IMG/VR virus record: IMGVR_UViG_2718217868_000001
Location: 1 to 40,101 of that record
Direction: 5' to 3' (one strand)
DNA length: 40,101 bases
Source of the DNA: a virus
Taxonomy: Duplodnaviria > Heunggongvirae > Uroviricota > Caudoviricetes
Part shown: piece by piece, positions 1 to 39,093 of the stretch
How positions within the stretch are numbered: the first letter of the stretch is position 1
Layout of the letters: every line of letters starts with the position of its first letter
Notes under the pieces: generated by a model
The model's input: the letters and a program-made list of their open reading frames with translations, nothing else
Told to the model about the DNA's origin: nothing
Databases searched by the model: none
Program-made: the position numbers and the translations under genes

Positions 1-201
1 TTACCCATTGGCGCGGCTTAAGAGCTTATTTTTGAATTCACAATGGTCACGATATAACCATCTTGCTCGCCCGTGGATAACTTTGGCTTTAGGCAGGTCT
101 CCGGACTTAATCCGGTCATAGATGAAGGTTTTACCGAAGCCAGTATCGGCCATGATGAATTTCAAATCAACCAGTGAATCAGGTTGTAGTTCGTGTTGCA
201 T
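1..201 (-). CDS. torI: Excisionase / recombination directionality factor, TorI-like (66 aa)
   Basis: Complete 66-aa ORF, stop codon at 1..3. The sequence matches my recollection of KplE1/CPS-53 TorI, a small winged-helix DNA-binding protein. It is the last gene of the leftward early operon. Confidence 0.75.
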   Translation of the reverse strand: MQHELQPDSLVDLKFIMADTGFGKTFIYDRIKSGDLPKAKVIHGRARWLYRDHCEFKNKLLSRANG

Positions 202-220
202 GAGTGCTATCTCCGAATAT

Positions 221-236
221 GGAATCGAACCTGCAA
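221..236. other. 16-bp segment identical to the T-arm region of the tRNA-Arg gene at 39033..39048
   Basis: Exact match ggaatcgaacctgcaa at both places, read directly from the sequence. The tRNA 3' acceptor end does not follow the copy at 221..236. Confidence 0.6.
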
Positions 237-245
237 ATCAGGCAA

Positions 246-266
246 GAAAAAACCGCATTGATGCGG
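246..266 (-). terminator. Putative intrinsic terminator on the minus strand between the 114-aa gene and torI
   Basis: Minus-strand hairpin ccgca/tgcgg followed by a TTTTTTCTT run. Confidence 0.4.
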
Positions 267-325
267 CAATGGTAGGTCTGGATATCTTGAGAAATGAAAA
301 TGCCACATCGAGTGTGAGACTGTGG

Positions 326-670
326 TTAGTCCTTGCGTAGCTCGCTGATTCTTCTGTAAGTCTCTGGTGCTTTGTTTCCGTGTATCTTCATTTCAGACTT
401 CAACAGAGCAACGAGGGAATCCCATTCGTTGAGGATGCCTTTGAATGCCGGAACGCGCTTTGCAACCTTGTCGAATGAATCCCTGATTTCTGGAATCTGC
501 TCAACAAGTGCAACGCATCGTCGGAAATCGGCTGCATCATGTGGAGCGCCGAAGTGATGACCATAGATATTCTTTTTCAGTCCACATGCGATTGAGGCAA
601 GAGTTGCGCTACTGATACCGACATCGCTAGTCGATTGCCATTTCAAAACCTTCATAGCCAAATCTGACAT
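326..670 (-). CDS. Hypothetical early-left phage protein (114 aa)
   Basis: ORF with a GGAGA ribosome-binding site upstream of the ATG; co-oriented with the early-left operon. No family recognised. Confidence 0.6.
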   Translation of the reverse strand: MSDLAMKVLKWQSTSDVGISSATLASIACGLKKNIYGHHFGAPHDAADFRRCVALVEQIPEIRDSFDKVAKRVPAFKGILNEWDSLVALLKSEMKIHGNKAPETYRRISELRKD

Positions 671-742
671 TTCTTATCTCCATAAAACAAAACCCGCCGT
701 AGCGAGTTCAGATAAAAGAAATCCCCGCGAGTGCGAGGATTG

Positions 743-1027
743 TTATTCAGTGCCGATATTCACCTTTATCGCGTACACCTTTACCGGTTTATCGCCGAAG
801 TGAGGATGTGTGATTGTCTTGATTTCATATCCGTCATACGGGACGTCAATTCTGCGGCTGGAATCGTCGCGCTTCGGATATCCCTTTGTGATAATCAGGC
901 GGTCATACTCCCGGAACATAATTCGCTTATTCCAGTAGTCATTACACAGGCGATACTCTTCCGTTTTCTCGCCCCGCTTCATCTGGTCGAAGTATTCGCC
1001 GTTCACTGCCAGTTGCAGATTAGCCAT
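743..1027 (-). CDS. Hypothetical protein, possibly ASCH/DUF3850-like (94 aa)
   Basis: Contains a GEKTEEYR motif resembling the ASCH-type GxKxxExR signature; its start overlaps the stop of the upstream gene. Confidence 0.5.
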   Translation of the reverse strand: MANLQLAVNGEYFDQMKRGEKTEEYRLCNDYWNKRIMFREYDRLIITKGYPKRDDSSRRIDVPYDGYEIKTITHPHFGDKPVKVYAIKVNIGTE

Positions 1028-1775
1028 TGTCAGCCTCCTGCTGCGGTGCTGCTGGTGCGGCGGCGAGCATTTTCGAGTAGCAATGCACTGTATTCAGCCA
1101 GAACCCAACCACCGATTGTCCAGCACGCAACATATCTTTTGTTGGGTCAATCGGAACAAGTTTCCATCCATTAGGAATTGGTGGGGTATTAACGCTTTCC
1201 TCCTGAAGCGCGGCAGCAGCTCGTTCCAAAAGCTCAGGTGATTTGATCTCTCCTTTTTCTCGAAGATATTTAGCCCTGCCGGTAAGCATGCAAATAAAAT
1301 CATCTGGAGACTTGTAAGTCGTCGTTACAGGCTCGTCACCCTGAAGTATGGCGGCGCGGCAGGCATCACTGCGAACTTCAATCCCCGCCTTATCCAACGC
1401 AAGCAACAAACCTCGTTCGCTGTCTCCGCAGTCGTCCAGTGTGTCATTGAGCACCGAAAGCGCTTTTTCGAAATCTTTATCGTGAATAGCGAGCACCACA
1501 GCCACCGCTGGCTGCGGTAACTGTGGTGCTGTGTAGAGTGGCGTAACACTGATTTCGTATTCGTTAATATCTTCATCGCTGATAGATGCATCAAAGCTTA
1601 AAAAGCCAGGTCTACCGAGACCACGGGCCTGTGCGTCCTGGATGATGTACGCCACAGCCTCAGCTTCGAGCGATGCCAGTGCGATACGCGCCAGCTCCCT
1701 TTCTTCTGACGCGGTTGGCTCAGGACCGTTGCCGAGGAAAATTTCTTGTGCGCGCTTTTTGGTAATTGTGCTCAT
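1020..1775 (-). CDS. Hypothetical early-left phage protein (251 aa)
   Basis: ORF with an AAGGAGAG ribosome-binding site; ATGA overlap with the upstream gene. Confidence 0.6.
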   Translation of the reverse strand: MSTITKKRAQEIFLGNGPEPTASEERELARIALASLEAEAVAYIIQDAQARGLGRPGFLSFDASISDEDINEYEISVTPLYTAPQLPQPAVAVVLAIHDKDFEKALSVLNDTLDDCGDSERGLLLALDKAGIEVRSDACRAAILQGDEPVTTTYKSPDDFICMLTGRAKYLREKGEIKSPELLERAAAALQEESVNTPPIPNGWKLVPIDPTKDMLRAGQSVVGFWLNTVHCYSKMLAAAPAAPQQEADNG

Positions 1776-9496: not shown

Positions 9497-9775
9497 ATGC
9501 AACTTACAAGTACTCGCAAGAAAGCGAATGCAATTACAAGCAACATCCTGAATCGAATTGCTGTACGTGGCCAGCGAAAGGTTGCTGATGCATTAGGGAT
9601 CAATGAATCGCAAATTTCGCGATGGAAAGACAGCTTCATCCCAAAAATGGGAATGCTTCTGGCTGTTCTTGAATGGGGTGTTGAAGACGAGGAGTTGGCG
9701 GAACTGGCTAAGAAAGTAGCCAGAATGCTGACAAAAGAAAAAGCCCCGAAGAACGGCGAATTCTTCGAGGCCTAA
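9497..9775 (+). CDS. cII: CII transcriptional activator (lambda CII-like, 92 aa)
   Basis: ..GINESQISRWKDSFIPKMGMLLAVLEWGVEDEELAELAKKVA.. closely matches lambda CII; AAGGAAA site; start at 9497 within the six-frame ORF 9437..9775. Confidence 0.85.
   Translation: MQLTSTRKKANAITSNILNRIAVRGQRKVADALGINESQISRWKDSFIPKMGMLLAVLEWGVEDEELAELAKKVARMLTKEKAPKNGEFFEA
9731..9770 (-). terminator. Minus-strand intrinsic terminator inside the cII 3' end (oop-like antisense RNA terminator)
   Basis: The minus strand forms a 10-bp stem CCUCGAAGAA/UUCUUCGGGG followed by a U-rich tract; the position is analogous to the lambda oop RNA terminator. Confidence 0.45.
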
Positions 9776-15125: not shown

Positions 15126-15745
15126 GACTCGAAAGCGTAGCTAAATTTCATTCGCCAAAAAGCCCGATGATGAGCGACTCACCACGGGCCACGGCTTCTG
15201 ACTCTCTTTCCGGTACTGATGTGATGGCTGCTATGGGGATGGCGCAATCACAAGCCGGATTCGGAATGGCTGCATTCTGCGGTAAGCATGAACTCAGCCA
15301 GAACGACAAACAAAAGGCTATCAACTATCTGATGCAATTTGCACACAAGGTATCGGGGAAATACCGTGGTGTGGCAAAGCTTGAAGGAAATACTAAGGCA
15401 AAGGTACTGCAAGTGCTCGCAACATTCGCTTATGCGGATTATTGCCGTAGTGCCGCGACGCCGGGCGCAAGATGCAGAGATTGCCACGGTACAGGCCGTG
15501 CGGTTGATATTGCCAAAACAGAGCAGTGGGGGAGAGTTGTCGAGAAAGAGTGCGGAAGATGCAAAGGCGTCGGCTATTCCAGGATGCCAGCAAGCGCCGC
15601 ATATCGCGCTGTAACGATGCTAATCCCAAACCTTACCCAACCCACCTGGTCACGCACTGTTAAGCCGCTGTATGACGCTCTGGTGGTGCAATGCCACAAA
15701 GAAGAGTCAATCGCAGACAACATTTTGAATGCGGTCACACGTTAG
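15122..15745 (+). CDS. Q: Late-gene antiterminator Q (lambda Q-type)
   Basis: 207 aa beginning MRLESVAKFHSPKSPMMSDSPRATASD.., essentially the lambda Q sequence as I recall it, with the Zn-finger region CRDCHGTG..CGRCKG. Confidence 0.9.
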   Translation: MRLESVAKFHSPKSPMMSDSPRATASDSLSGTDVMAAMGMAQSQAGFGMAAFCGKHELSQNDKQKAINYLMQFAHKVSGKYRGVAKLEGNTKAKVLQVLATFAYADYCRSAATPGARCRDCHGTGRAVDIAKTEQWGRVVEKECGRCKGVGYSRMPASAAYRAVTMLIPNLTQPTWSRTVKPLYDALVVQCHKEESIADNILNAVTR

Positions 15746-17396: not shown

Positions 17397-17843
17397 TAGC
17401 GATAATTTTACTCATCATCCTTCACATCTGGCTCTGTAGACAGGGTGGTGATCACTTCTGGAGTGAATCCAGATTAAACATCTCATTGCTGATGCTTGAT
17501 ATTGAGCATCTGGCGCGCGGTAAGGGGCTGCGTTGAGATAAGAGCCAGTTCATTACAAAGCCTATCTACGGATGGGCTTGATAATGAAACCAAAATTTAT
17601 TCTGGGTAACCAGTTACGGCAGTACAGCGAAACAACCCAAGCCAGAAAGTGGGGAAATAACACTGGCAGCCACTGAAAGATGAACCTCCTGCCTTATGGC
17701 AAAAAAGATTCTTTGTGGTGGCGGACTGATGGAAAGACATCGGTTATTGCAGAGGCCATTCAATGAGTGGTCTCGACAATGGCTTATACCCTGCACGGGA
17801 TAACTTAACTGATATCCCTTTTAACGGATAAACGGAGCCAACA

Positions 17844-25145: not shown

Positions 25146-25383
<238 letters not shown>

Positions 25384-25406
<23 letters not shown>

Positions 25407-35565: not shown

Positions 35566-37413
35566 ATGACAGACATTACAGCCAATGTGATTGTATCGAT
35601 GCCTTCGCAACTCTTCACTATGGCGCGTTCTTTTAAAGCCGTAGCCAATGGCAAAATTTATATCGGTAAAATTGACACTGACCCGGTAAATCCTGAAAAC
35701 CAGATTCAGGTTTATGTAGAGAACGAAGACGGATCTCACATTCCTGTTTCGCAACCAATCATTATCAATTCTGCTGGTTACCCTGTATATAACGGACAGA
35801 TTGCCAAATTCGTAACTGTGCAAGGCCATTCTATGGCTGTTTATGATGCGTATGGTGCACAGCAGTTCTATTTTCCGAATGTGCTGAAGTATGATCCTGA
35901 TCAGCTTGAAAAAAGGTTATCAAGCCCATCCGAAGGAATGGGAGATTCTCTAATTGCTGTTAAACAACCTTTTCCGAGAGCGGTTCCACAGACTCAACAT
36001 TTGTTTAATGCAATGACCTTTTCTGTTTTCAGTTGGGGAGCTAAAGCTGATGGCGTCAATGATGACACAACAGCAATTAAAAACTGTCTTCAAGACCTAA
36101 AGAGTTCATATCCATCTGGATGTAATGTATTTCTTCCAGCAGGAGAGTATAGAATTAGTGAAACTATTATTATCCCTGATAGAATTAATTTGTTCGGATG
36201 TGGAAACGGAACTCATATACGGCCAATAGGAGATATTTTAAGTAATAGTAATGCTTATATTATATGTTTTGATTATGGCCCTACAACAGCAGGTGCATTT
36301 ATTCGTGACATAACCATTACTGGAAACGATATAGTGAAGGGGATAGGAACTACCTTAAAAAAAAGCGATACAGTAATAAGGCAAGTTTACGCTCTTAATT
36401 TTGACTGCGTCACGGTACAAAATTGTTCAATAGGTTTTGAAATGCAAGGCTGGTGGCACAGCTCAATGACAAACTGCCGAGCTAGTGGGTGTAATATTGG
36501 TCTTAGATTGCTTGGTCAGTGTGTTAGTATACATATATCAGGATGTAAATTCACAGGAAAGGGGTTGTCTCAACCATCGTCTATAGGAATAGATATTGCA
36601 CCAGAAACTTACTCATGGTCTGGTGGTGAAGTGATAAGCGAGGGGATAATTATTGATGGTGAGACAATGTGTATCTCAAATAACGTTGGGATATGGGTAA
36701 AAGGTAGCCTTTATATGCATCTTTCGAATGTCGATATTGATTTCGTAGGGTCAACTGGGATAATTCTTGAAAATAACAATTCTGTTTTTTCTGTAAGAGA
36801 TTGCTGGATTGCCGCACAAGGTGACAGCATTAATCAGTTTGTTGGAATAGACTTTAGATCTCAGACGCCTTCAGTTCTTCGTAATATAGAAGGAGTGGAA
36901 ATTAGGTGTGAAAACAATAACCCTATCAATAACAATATAGGTATATCTTTAAACAATGTCAGTAATGTTAATGTTTTGGGAGTAAATATAATTGGTGGTG
37001 ATAAATCAATTTATTCAAAAACATCAAGAAATATTAATATCAATGGATGTATGTTTGCTAGTGATTTGTTGTTTGATGATATTGACGGTCTCTCATTGAA
37101 CGGTAATTACATAACATCACTTACCTTATTAAACTCACCAAAAGATAGAAACAATAACTTTGGGGTTAATAACAATAAATTAACTAGAGGAAAGGTAACT
37201 GTACCTATGTCACCCGGAGCTACATCAGGAACTGCAGACATCCCAAACCCAATTTCTGGCGTCATATATTCTGCCAGCGTAATTCCAACTGATGCTGCAA
37301 ACTCAATGGACACTGTTTCAGTTTCAGGAACAACAATAACAATATCAAGACCAACACCTGTTGGTGTTTCCTTACCAACACTTGTTGAATACTATTTAAT
37401 ATCATCATTATAA
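35566..37413 (+). CDS. Tailspike protein: P22 gp9-like N-terminal head-binding domain fused to a different beta-helix receptor-binding domain
   Basis: N-terminal ~115 aa [58 protein letters not shown].. matches the P22 tailspike head-binding domain; the rest is an unrelated pectate-lyase-like region (..[25 protein letters not shown]..). Confidence 0.9.
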
Positions 37414-37699: not shown

Positions 37700-38893
37700 T
37701 CACTCCACCTTTTCATCAAGCCAGTCCGCCCACCACTGCATCATTTCTCTGCGCTTGTCGAGATACTGAGCATGGTTGTAAATCCCGCGCACAGATCCGC
37801 CGTTGGCATGTGCAAGTTGCACTTCAATAGCATCAGCAGGCCATTCGTGCTCGTTCATAATCGTGCTGAATTCATGCCTGAATCCGTGACCGCTTTCCAG
37901 ACCCTCATAGCCGATTTGTTTGATCACAAGCAATACCGCGTTCTCGCAGATTGGCTTCTTCTTATCGTTGCGCCCGGCAAAAACAAACTCTGATACTGGT
38001 TTAGTGATGGAGCTTAGCGTAGTGAGAAGTTCAACTACCTGGTCCGACATCGGAACCACATGAATTTTGCGTCCCTTCATCACACTGGCGTCGATGGTGA
38101 TAATCCTGTTTTCAAAATCGACGTTCTTCCATAGCATGGAACGAAGCTCTTTTGTTCTGAGGGCTGTGTAGCGTAAAGCTTTGGTCGCAATGAGCGATAC
38201 GATACTTCCTGAAAATGTTGCCAGTGCTTTGTTGAATGCCGGGATCTGGTCTGCAGGAAGAAACGGGAAGTTCTTCTTGCGGTATCCCTTCATGGCGTCA
38301 GCAAGGTCAGGTGCCGGGTTATATTTAGCCCTTCCGGTGACAATAGCGTAACGGAAAACCTCTCCGCATCTTCTGCGGGCTTTGTTGGCTCGCTCAATTG
38401 CACCGCGATCTTCAAATCTGCGGATTACTTCCAGCAGTTGCATCGGCTCAATATCCTGAATTTCAAGGCTGCCGATGATAGGTAAAATGTCGTCATCAAA
38501 CATTTTGGCAAGTTCAGTTGCATAGCCTACTGACCAGACTTGCTTCTTGTGCTCGTACCATTCCTTGTAAATGGCACTAAAGGAATTGTTGTTAGACGAA
38601 GCCTTTTTCGCTTTTACCGGATCGATGCCAACCGAGATGTCTTTCCTCGCGGTCCATGCTTTATCCCTTGCCTCCTGCAAAGTCATAAGCGGATATTTTC
38701 CGACGGTCAGGATTTTCTCCTTACCGTCAATCTTGTAGCGAAGCTGCCATACCTTTTTCCCTGATACAGGGACATAAAGGTACAGGCCATTACCATCGAG
38801 TAGGCGGTATGGTTTTTCTTTCGGCTTTGCTGCTTCAATCTGCTTAACGGTGAGCATGGGTAAAAATCCGGTGGGTAAAATTATTTTATCCAC
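37700..38893 (-). CDS. intS: Tyrosine integrase (KplE1/CPS-53 IntS-type)
   Basis: 397 aa; C-terminal catalytic motifs HGFRHEF and ..VRGIYNHAQY; adjacent to and transcribed away from the tRNA-Arg gene. Confidence 0.9.
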   Translation of the reverse strand: MDKIILPTGFLPMLTVKQIEAAKPKEKPYRLLDGNGLYLYVPVSGKKVWQLRYKIDGKEKILTVGKYPLMTLQEARDKAWTARKDISVGIDPVKAKKASSNNNSFSAIYKEWYEHKKQVWSVGYATELAKMFDDDILPIIGSLEIQDIEPMQLLEVIRRFEDRGAIERANKARRRCGEVFRYAIVTGRAKYNPAPDLADAMKGYRKKNFPFLPADQIPAFNKALATFSGSIVSLIATKALRYTALRTKELRSMLWKNVDFENRIITIDASVMKGRKIHVVPMSDQVVELLTTLSSITKPVSEFVFAGRNDKKKPICENAVLLVIKQIGYEGLESGHGFRHEFSTIMNEHEWPADAIEVQLAHANGGSVRGIYNHAQYLDKRREMMQWWADWLDEKVE

Positions 38894-39032
38894 TTTTTAC
38901 CCGTCATGGAGTGCGGCTGTCAACGATCTGACGCGAACCATTACGAACTGTGAATCTACGGAAGGCTTGATATTCAGGGGATTTTGCGGACTGGTACGGA
39001 TGAGAGCGAACTGATAAATGGTGTCCCCTGCA
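38894..39032. promoter_or_regulatory. Prophage-host junction (att region with probable integrase promoter and arm sites) overlapping the tRNA 3' end
   Basis: Position between int and the tRNA; exact core and crossover are not determinable from one junction. Confidence 0.5.
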
Positions 39033-39093
39033 GGAATCGAACCTGCAATTAGCCCTTAGGAGGGGCTCGTTATATCCATTTAACTAAGAGGAC
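39019..39093 (-). tRNA. argW: tRNA-Arg (anticodon CCU), argW-type
   Basis: 75-nt minus-strand sequence GTCCTCTTAGTTAAATGGATATAACGAGCCCCTCCTAAGGGCTAATTGCAGGTTCGATTCCTGCAGGGGACACCA with a cloverleaf and CCU anticodon. Confidence 0.9.

Follow-up and report, generated by a model that had tools for sequence, protein, structure and literature searches.

Prophages of the KplE1/HK620/Sf6 type make their integrase constitutively, and in the published view excision is decided by the timing of TorI synthesis; according to Panis et al., the control of excision in these phages must act on the gene for the recombination directionality factor (RDF). TorI recognizes attL at five 8-nt sites defined by GTTCG, GATCG or GTCCG (PMC2951348), and its binding over these five phased sites was cooperative when assayed at 10 uM protein (PMC3509656). 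TorI and IntS both repress PintS, and P4 Vis is also an RDF acting as a regulator (PMC2951348). The published attachment core of KplE1, HK620, Sf6 and Kapi1 is CTGCAGGGGACACCAT (PMC2951348; PMC8787464), and a 135-bp attR is sufficient for excision in vitro (PMC3509656).

The torI module occupies argW in E. coli K-12 and in many other E. coli genomes. We analyzed a stretch of 40,101 nucleotides, referred to here as the window, which is identical to E. coli strain H6 (NZ_CP010170.1) from position 1600890 onward and represents a complete P22-like prophage between dsdC and argW-yfdC. Its gene set includes N, cI, cro, cII, cIII, Q, P22-type head genes, a tailspike gene, intS and torI. A tandem hexamer, (CAGAGC)n, was seen at 25291-25330 within a small hypothetical gene (25146-25406) just downstream of the coat protein gene.

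Upstream of torI the window carries a copy of part of the T-arm of argW, its integration target. From sequence comparison, we propose that this box is an argW-derived element kept by selection, and that it may serve in the torI leader as a DNA control site read by TorI and/or IntS; we assign this reading a probability of about 0.4. The recombination module is already known, and the region has been annotated as a putative promoter. The T-arm identity and deep conservation of the box were not found in the open literature searched, where the sequence string returned mainly unrelated papers on eukaryotic tRNAs and CRISPR constructs.

Table 1. Positions of features in and next to the window (window numbering unless another sequence is named)
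Feature	Position	Strand	Basis or remark
attR copy of att core	L001 (DNA left of window) 2913-2928, i.e. 73-88 bp left of window position 1		
torI, recombination directionality factor, 66 aa	1..201	-	identical to K-12 TorI by accession
torI Shine-Dalgarno GGAG, 6 nt downstream of box	211..214	-	read from sequence; spacing of about 6 nt recurs across lineages
Reported 16-mer	221..236	-	exact match; torI-strand reading TTGCAGGTTCGATTCC; 20 nt upstream of torI ATG
Conserved 13-nt T-arm box CAGGTTCGATTCC	221..233	-	k-mer test and alignments
TTGC-N5-TTGC box	233..245	-	HK620 annotation: cII binding site of putative pI promoter
Intrinsic terminator, hairpin 267-252 and T-run	246..267	-	matches terminator annotated upstream of xis in phage 434
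pRE cII box TTGCgagtacTTGT, then 13 nt, AAGTAT	9506-9519	-	cII 5' end
Second N6 cII box (TTGC-N6-TTGY)	9530-9543	-	
paQ cII box TTGCgagcacTTGC, then 13 nt, TAGTAT	15409-15422	-	inside Q
intS, P4-family tyrosine integrase	37700..38857	-	
P' arm of attL: five TorI sites, intS promoter, GGGTAAA-type IntS arm sites	38860..39017	-	PMC2951348 site definitions
TorI-site GTTCG-type pentamers	39007-39011, 38987-38991, 38944-38948, 38934-38938, 38924-38928	-	
attL copy of 16-nt att core, CTGCAGGGGACACCAT on tRNA strand	39018..39033	.	published core
tRNA-Arg(CCT) gene argW, integration target	39019..39093	-	ARAGORN
Second 16-mer copy, within argW	39033..39048	-	exact match and ARAGORN tRNA position

Attachment junctions and the 16-mer repeat

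The direct repeat ATGGTGTCCCCTGCAG was present at both junctions (Table 1), one of which was located in the sequence left of the window; neither junction involves the 16-mer. Core and 16-mer overlap by one base in the tRNA gene and lie about 290 bp apart at the torI end, with torI and the P arm between them. The inner primer of the 135-bp attR (attR-IHF2, CTCTTAAGCCGCGCCAATGG) maps to window positions 5-24, leaving the box outside; since that attR ends at position 24, the 16-mer is dispensable for strand exchange in vitro. The 16-mer is thus not an attachment junction. An earlier note on this DNA had considered it a possible relic of a former or secondary attachment event; as a junction this was not borne out, because the true junctions share the different, published 16-nt core, although an ancient rearrangement may be the source of the box. 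The note would have taken a different core together with absence of the 16-mer from related prophages as a refutation, and of these two only the former was found: the 16-mer is identical in K-12 KplE1, HK620 and Sf6.

It is extremely improbable that the box acts as a secondary or alternative attachment site or as a recombination substrate, with exchange between the 16-mers, by IntS or by homologous recombination, rearranging or deleting the prophage. The two copies do form 16-bp direct repeats at opposite ends of the prophage, but the box does not have the crossover region CTGCAGG and falls beyond the functional attR. A search of 5,426 complete E. coli genomes for the deletion junction that such exchange would leave (argW 5' part, T-arm, torI leader) found no instance, and recombination between the two copies is largely refuted.

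The TorI sites of the window read TCAGTTCG, CCAGTCCG, ACAGTTCG, ATGGTTCG and TCAGATCG, with the general form nCAGTTCG or tGGTTCG. The T-loop GTTCG of argW and the five TorI pentamers (38924-39042, minus strand) start at 0, 31, 51, 94, 104 and 114 nt, spacings that all fall within about 1.5 nt of whole helical turns, and the T-loop-to-I1 distance of 31 nt is also constant across Erwinia, Klebsiella and E. coli modules. At the opposite end, the P arm beside the att core (L001 2919-2950, window -82 to -51; also L008-L144) contains an inverted repeat, TCCCCTGC...N16-18...GCAGGGGA, with its right arm belonging to the core. This repeat covaries, being CCCCTAC/GTAGGGG in Rouxiella (L019) and TCCCTGCA/TGCAGGGA in Edwardsiella (L020), which suggests a paired recognition element or a hairpin.

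The 16-mer GGAATCGAACCTGCAA occurs in two exact copies only, both on the plus strand. No further copies were found on either strand of the window with up to two mismatches allowed (expected 0.03), and argW is the only tRNA gene that ARAGORN reports there. On the tRNA strand the argW copy begins 2 bases before the end of the variable region, runs through the 5' T-stem (GCAGG) and the T-loop (TTCGATT), and stops 2 nt into the 3' T-stem. The earlier note's description of the other copy proved accurate: it is an exact 16-bp copy of the tRNA-Arg T-arm, inside the prophage (the attR core being about 290 bp away), it is not followed by the tRNA acceptor end, and it lies ahead of the TorI-like gene in a stretch annotated as a promoter by the HK620 and Sf6 authors. 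The claim that a chance match is very unlikely holds for this 16-mer but not for any 16-mer in 40 kb: one further non-tandem exact pair exists in the window (17569-17584 and 35917-35932, inverted, CGGATGGGCTTGATAA), which is probably due to chance and calibrates the claim. We consider the torI-argW pair non-random because it matches the prophage's own target tRNA in the same orientation and abuts the att core in that tRNA, and most strongly because the central 13 nt are found again ahead of torI in many divergent lineages.

Layout of the torI leader and conservation of the box

On the torI strand the order of elements is terminator hairpin, T-run, TTGC-ctgat-TTGC, AGGTTCGATTCC, (a/c)tattc, GGAG and ATG. 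In the HK620 annotation (AF335538) a "phage integration" promoter at 1664..1702 corresponds to window 208-246 and a cII site at 1689..1701 to 233-245; in Sf6 the same stretch is labelled pI and also closes a "boundary sequence". The terminator and the first TTGC of the window recur in phage 434 and in a lambdoid prophage whose xis is of the lambda type, where they are followed by the canonical TTGCgtgtaaTTGC of pI and then xis. The TTGC-N5-TTGC box aligns with the TTGC-N6-TTGC cII box of lambda/434 pI with a 1-nt gap. Homology to lambdoid phages runs outward from about 233-239, and homology of the Sf6/HK620 type runs from 1 to about 256-267. The 16-mer thus spans a mosaic joint, with TTG or TTGC at its start aligning to the lambdoid cII box and the remaining 12-13 bases belonging to the torI module.

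The 16-mer can accordingly be divided into three bases, TTG, of the lambdoid terminator/cII-box module and the 13 bases CAGGTTCGATTCC, which form an old box with the sequence of the argW T-arm. The additional TTG that lengthens the match from 13 to 16 nt is probably a chance resemblance to the tRNA or a microhomology joint. The most conserved stretch of the 13-nt box is GTTCGATTnC, with the TorI core pentamer GTTCG at 226-230. In K-12 KplE1 (L147 641-751, ER2683; same in MG1655) the 16-mer is intact even though the terminator stem is degenerate (GCCGTCATAGAGCGT) and TTAC stands in place of the first TTGC. Window positions 215-220 read CATATT in the window and a minority of relatives vs CCTATT in most E. 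coli copies; CATATT is the better -10-like hexamer and lies 18 nt after TTGCCT.

Conservation was evaluated in 142 torI loci from genomes, phages and viral contigs, which gave 85 distinct upstream regions and 29 lineages (<92% torI nucleotide identity). The lineages were chosen by TorI similarity alone, and k-mers were counted without a prior motif over the 60 nt preceding the ATG. Among 8-mers, GTTCGATT was found in the most lineages, 16 of the 29 (shuffled maximum 3), followed by GGTTCGAT, AGGTTCGA and CAGGTTCG (14, 13 and 12 lineages, respectively). For comparison, the 8-mer of the IntS arm sites defined by experiment, GGGTAAAA, was present in the P arm of 21 lineages. The 11-mer CAGGTTCGATT was shared by 12/29 lineages vs 7 for the best 11-mer around the IntS arm sites. 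Lineages with the box include Escherichia, Enterobacter, Citrobacter-type, Serratia, Pantoea and Edwardsiella modules as well as Erwinia phages. Two MAGs labelled Actinomycetes (L013) and Parachlamydiaceae (L030) carry enterobacterial-type torI modules 85-92% identical to the window TorI, which looks like contamination or mis-binning.

Mean pairwise identity reached 0.87 in the box, compared with 0.58 for third codon positions of torI and 0.36-0.49 for the flanks, values that are partly circular in that the alignment was anchored on TTCGATT. The 6-nt spacer between box and Shine-Dalgarno sequence varied at most positions (ctattc, ctgtcc, cagtcc, caaacc, cggcac and others), and the upstream flank of the box was not alignable across lineages. 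The box is doubled with a 16-nt period in Erwinia phages and a 13-nt period in L047, and in Enterobacter with the second copy decayed. The other 13 of the 29 lineages have no box and a wholly different upstream region, with torI overlapping the upstream gene in at least one of them (L006); the Dryocola lineage shows a clean deletion of the box.

Judged from these alignments, the box is constrained as primary sequence at a near-fixed distance from the torI Shine-Dalgarno sequence. The 16-mer is the E. coli-lineage form of a conserved box of 11-13 nt, cAGGTTCGATTyC, that copies the 5' stem and loop of the argW T-arm and lies between the terminator and the torI ribosome-binding site, at the outer edge of the torI-attP-intS module of the KplE1/HK620/Sf6 type. 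With a degree of conservation close to that of the proven IntS arm sites and a sequence that copies the target tRNA, the box is a concrete candidate for a control point of torI.

Promoter and RNA readings of the leader

The leader has also been viewed as a promoter. The 16-mer would in this case be part of a cII-dependent pI that drives int during lysogenisation, spanning the promoter-proximal TTGC and the spacer before the -10, and its identity with the tRNA would be coincidental. We find this rather unlikely. HK620 has a promoter and cII site and Sf6 has pI annotated at this stretch, phage 434 has a cII-controlled pI directly after the homologous terminator, CII is encoded by the window prophage (9497-9775), and the window variant TTGCCT-18-CATATT has 8/12 matches when read by eye. 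The HK620/Sf6 annotation was made by analogy with lambda/434 pI. The position relative to the homologous terminator (267-252) and the RDF gene is the same and the upstream TTGC is homologous; in lambda/434 the promoter overlaps the xis start.

The spacing upstream of torI is N5, whereas it is N6 in the phage's own pRE and paQ and in lambda/434 pI. The second TTGC is not kept outside the E. coli lineage (ttCCagg, i.e. TTCC), and the first is TTAC in many K-12-type copies. Nor does the putative -10 appear to be kept, since other lineages have caaacc, ctgtcc or cacc at this position; the candidate -10 hexamers of the window, TATTCG or CATATT, have 3-4/6 matches. A promoter spacer would not be expected to form the best-conserved 11 nt of the region, and the conservation of the box reaches lineages without TTGC repeats. 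A canonical cII box upstream of torI was ruled out by the N5 spacing, and the consensus scan found no sigma-70 promoter in window 1-800. A literature search for torI start-site data gave nothing useful. A weak cII-assisted promoter may exist in the E. coli phages, but it would leave the conservation of the box unaccounted for.

The promoter scan also bears on our preferred reading of the box as a DNA control site. A DNA-bound repressor downstream of a terminator needs an overlapping promoter, and since the scan found none, this counts against a control site. So does the fact that the 13 of 29 lineages without a box presumably still excise.

The box might instead act in the RNA: on read-through transcripts its AUUyCC half could pair with the Shine-Dalgarno region GGAG(A/G)U and limit TorI translation, with additional pairing of GGUU to AACC just before the AUG in some lineages. 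We regard this as quite unlikely. The nearly constant box-to-Shine-Dalgarno spacing of about 6 nt is in its favor, as are predicted Shine-Dalgarno-sequestering hairpins of -10.5 to -11.1 kcal/mol (z -2.2 to -2.8) in Citrobacter/Pantoea-type leaders and the ability of 87.5% of cells to pair in the UUyC:GGAG helix. This last value, however, equals that of shuffled columns, and no covariation in the form of two-sided changes was found in the helix. The folds of the window and HK620 leaders are weak (z about 0), no better than shuffles, and pairing accounts for 4-6 of the conserved bases but not for GGTTCG. RNAalifold gave no consensus structure of the leader, and no Rfam family matched window 1-700. 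The 3' T-stem is absent at 221-236 in the window, the full hairpin being present in Edwardsiella and Serratia-type lineages only.

Origin of the box, candidate readers and comparison with known systems

The suggestion in the earlier note that the 16-mer is a tRNA-fragment-derived sequence is supported, as CAGGTTCGATTCC matches argW at every position, is conserved across lineages, and in some of them the match runs further into the 3' strand of the T-stem. The extent of the match differs, being TTGCAGGTTCGATTCC in E. coli, CAGGTTCGATTCCTG in Serratia and GGTTCGATTCCTG in Pantoea: it is extended 5' by TTG in E. coli, 3' by CTG in Serratia and Pantoea, and to the whole hairpin ACAGG...CCTGT in Edwardsiella. 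Such lineage-specific edges fit an ancestral copy that covered most of the T-arm and then decayed at its ends in different ways. The stem bases of the box did not covary with the core of each module (in Edwardsiella the box has ACAGG...CCTGT and the core TGC).

On the P-arm side of the attP core, 55 distinct sequences (e.g. L014 2755-2775) read AAtT(c/a)GATGTn, that is AAtT(c/a)GATGTnTGCAGGGGAC, directly 5' of the identity block, where TTCGAT occupies the same register as in the tRNA T-loop. The argW homology therefore runs, imperfectly, past the published 16-nt core. Because attP keeps this T-loop-like TTCGAT beside the core, the box is a second copy and not the missing half of a split block, and the idea of a single tRNA segment interrupted by torI is weakened. 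One possible scenario is that argW DNA reached the outer edge of the module through an aberrant excision event or a rearrangement of att sites.

Such an argW piece, brought into an ancestral phage in this way, might also be a functionless relic that has simply not decayed so far, which we hold to be unlikely. The 16-mer abuts the core in the tRNA, as expected if both come from one tRNA segment, the box lies at the mosaic junction between modules, a further degenerate T-loop-like sequence adjoins the core in attP, and 13 of 29 lineages manage without the box. Against this, the box is intact where torI third positions are 58% identical and the adjoining spacer is mostly variable, and in no deep lineage was a decayed box found in a retained context, the changes being singleton variants and one clean deletion. 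The core-proximal T-loop remnant, moreover, marks the box as a second copy.

We return to the preferred reading, that of a DNA control site. An argW sequence would have entered the att region of an ancestral element and given rise to the box, which selection has since retained, as the comparison of lineages shows; the recombination proteins of the module may then read it and exert feedback on the synthesis of the excision factor. That the 16-mer is a protein-binding site common to both prophage ends, as the earlier note had also considered, is plausible from the sequence.

TorI is a candidate reader in that the box contains its recognition core, (CAG)GTTCG. In the frame of a TorI site the box reads GCAGGTTCG, with GTTCG at 230-226 on the minus strand; its 5' flank CAG is as in I1-I3 and I5, and GGTTCG matches I4. 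Positions 6-8, however, are ATT as in the tRNA, vs the TorI-site consensus GTTCGC(C/A)A, which counts against TorI. Since TorI binding is cooperative and was assayed at 10 uM, a single isolated box may stay unoccupied. A phased array of sites is absent, the box being single in the window and most lineages and the doubled copies 13 or 16 nt apart. A ChIP-seq study of a TorI-like protein reports no TorI motif.

IntS is the other candidate, as the box equals the attB sequence flanking the crossover, where a B-type core half-site is expected. In argW the identical sequence lies directly 5' of the identity block. The crossover would lie at the 5' edge of this block because the rest rebuilds the tRNA 3' end, so that the left core-type half-site would be the T-loop in attB and, in attP, the stretch that contains TTCGAT. 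From this layout we infer that the attB flank is an IntS B site. A box that was a detached B half-site would explain its lasting identity with the tRNA. The overlap region and partner half-site are absent at the box; ATATTCGGAG follows in the window, and CTG is kept in some lineages only. To our knowledge, an isolated core-type half-site without an overlap region has no precedent as an operator.

It is conceivable, though rather doubtful, that the detached attB half-site copy in the excisionase leader is a regulatory mimic, which is bound by the integrase and/or the RDF, couples their level to excision-factor synthesis and so sets the excision switch. Tandem second islands at the argW core have GGTTCGAT 151-152 nt from the core start (L010, L018, L031) or GTTCAAT at 163 nt (L022), flanked in each case by short inverted repeats (e.g. 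GGGGCA...TGCCCC) and located shortly before their own P4-type int genes. If the box is such a mimic, the T-loop-like boxes that precede int genes in unrelated argW islands would follow the same principle.

Should TorI or IntS bind the box, an autoregulatory loop would be added to a well-studied model of prophage maintenance, and att-site mimicry would be used for regulation; if the box is only a promoter spacer or relic, it amounts to a minor annotation note. Cox of phage P2 is a recombination protein that also acts as a transcriptional regulator. The arrangement proposed for the box resembles it, as well as TorI/IntS at PintS and P4 Vis, in placing a recombination protein on a recombination-type site in a control region. 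It differs from them in that autoregulation of torI or control of torI by IntS is unreported, and the case for the box is one of sequence resemblance only.

Elements with P4-family integrases reportedly carry tRNA-derived identity blocks in attP. Like these, the box is a sequence from the 3' half of a tRNA carried by the element in the orientation of the gene. Those blocks adjoin the crossover and restore the tRNA, whereas the box is detached from it by torI and the P arm and restores nothing.

The closest system is the KplE1/HK620/Sf6 module (PMC2951348, PMC3509656), with which the window shares the same TorI, 16-nt core and P'-arm layout. The box resembles the TorI sites I1-I5 of KplE1 in its GTTCG core, orientation and CAG-type 5' flank. 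Unlike the KplE1 sites, which are on attL, it lies upstream of torI at the other end, beyond the mapped att regions and at a distance of about 290 bp from the attR core, and it is a single copy and not a phased array, with ATT and not C(C/A)A at positions 6-8.
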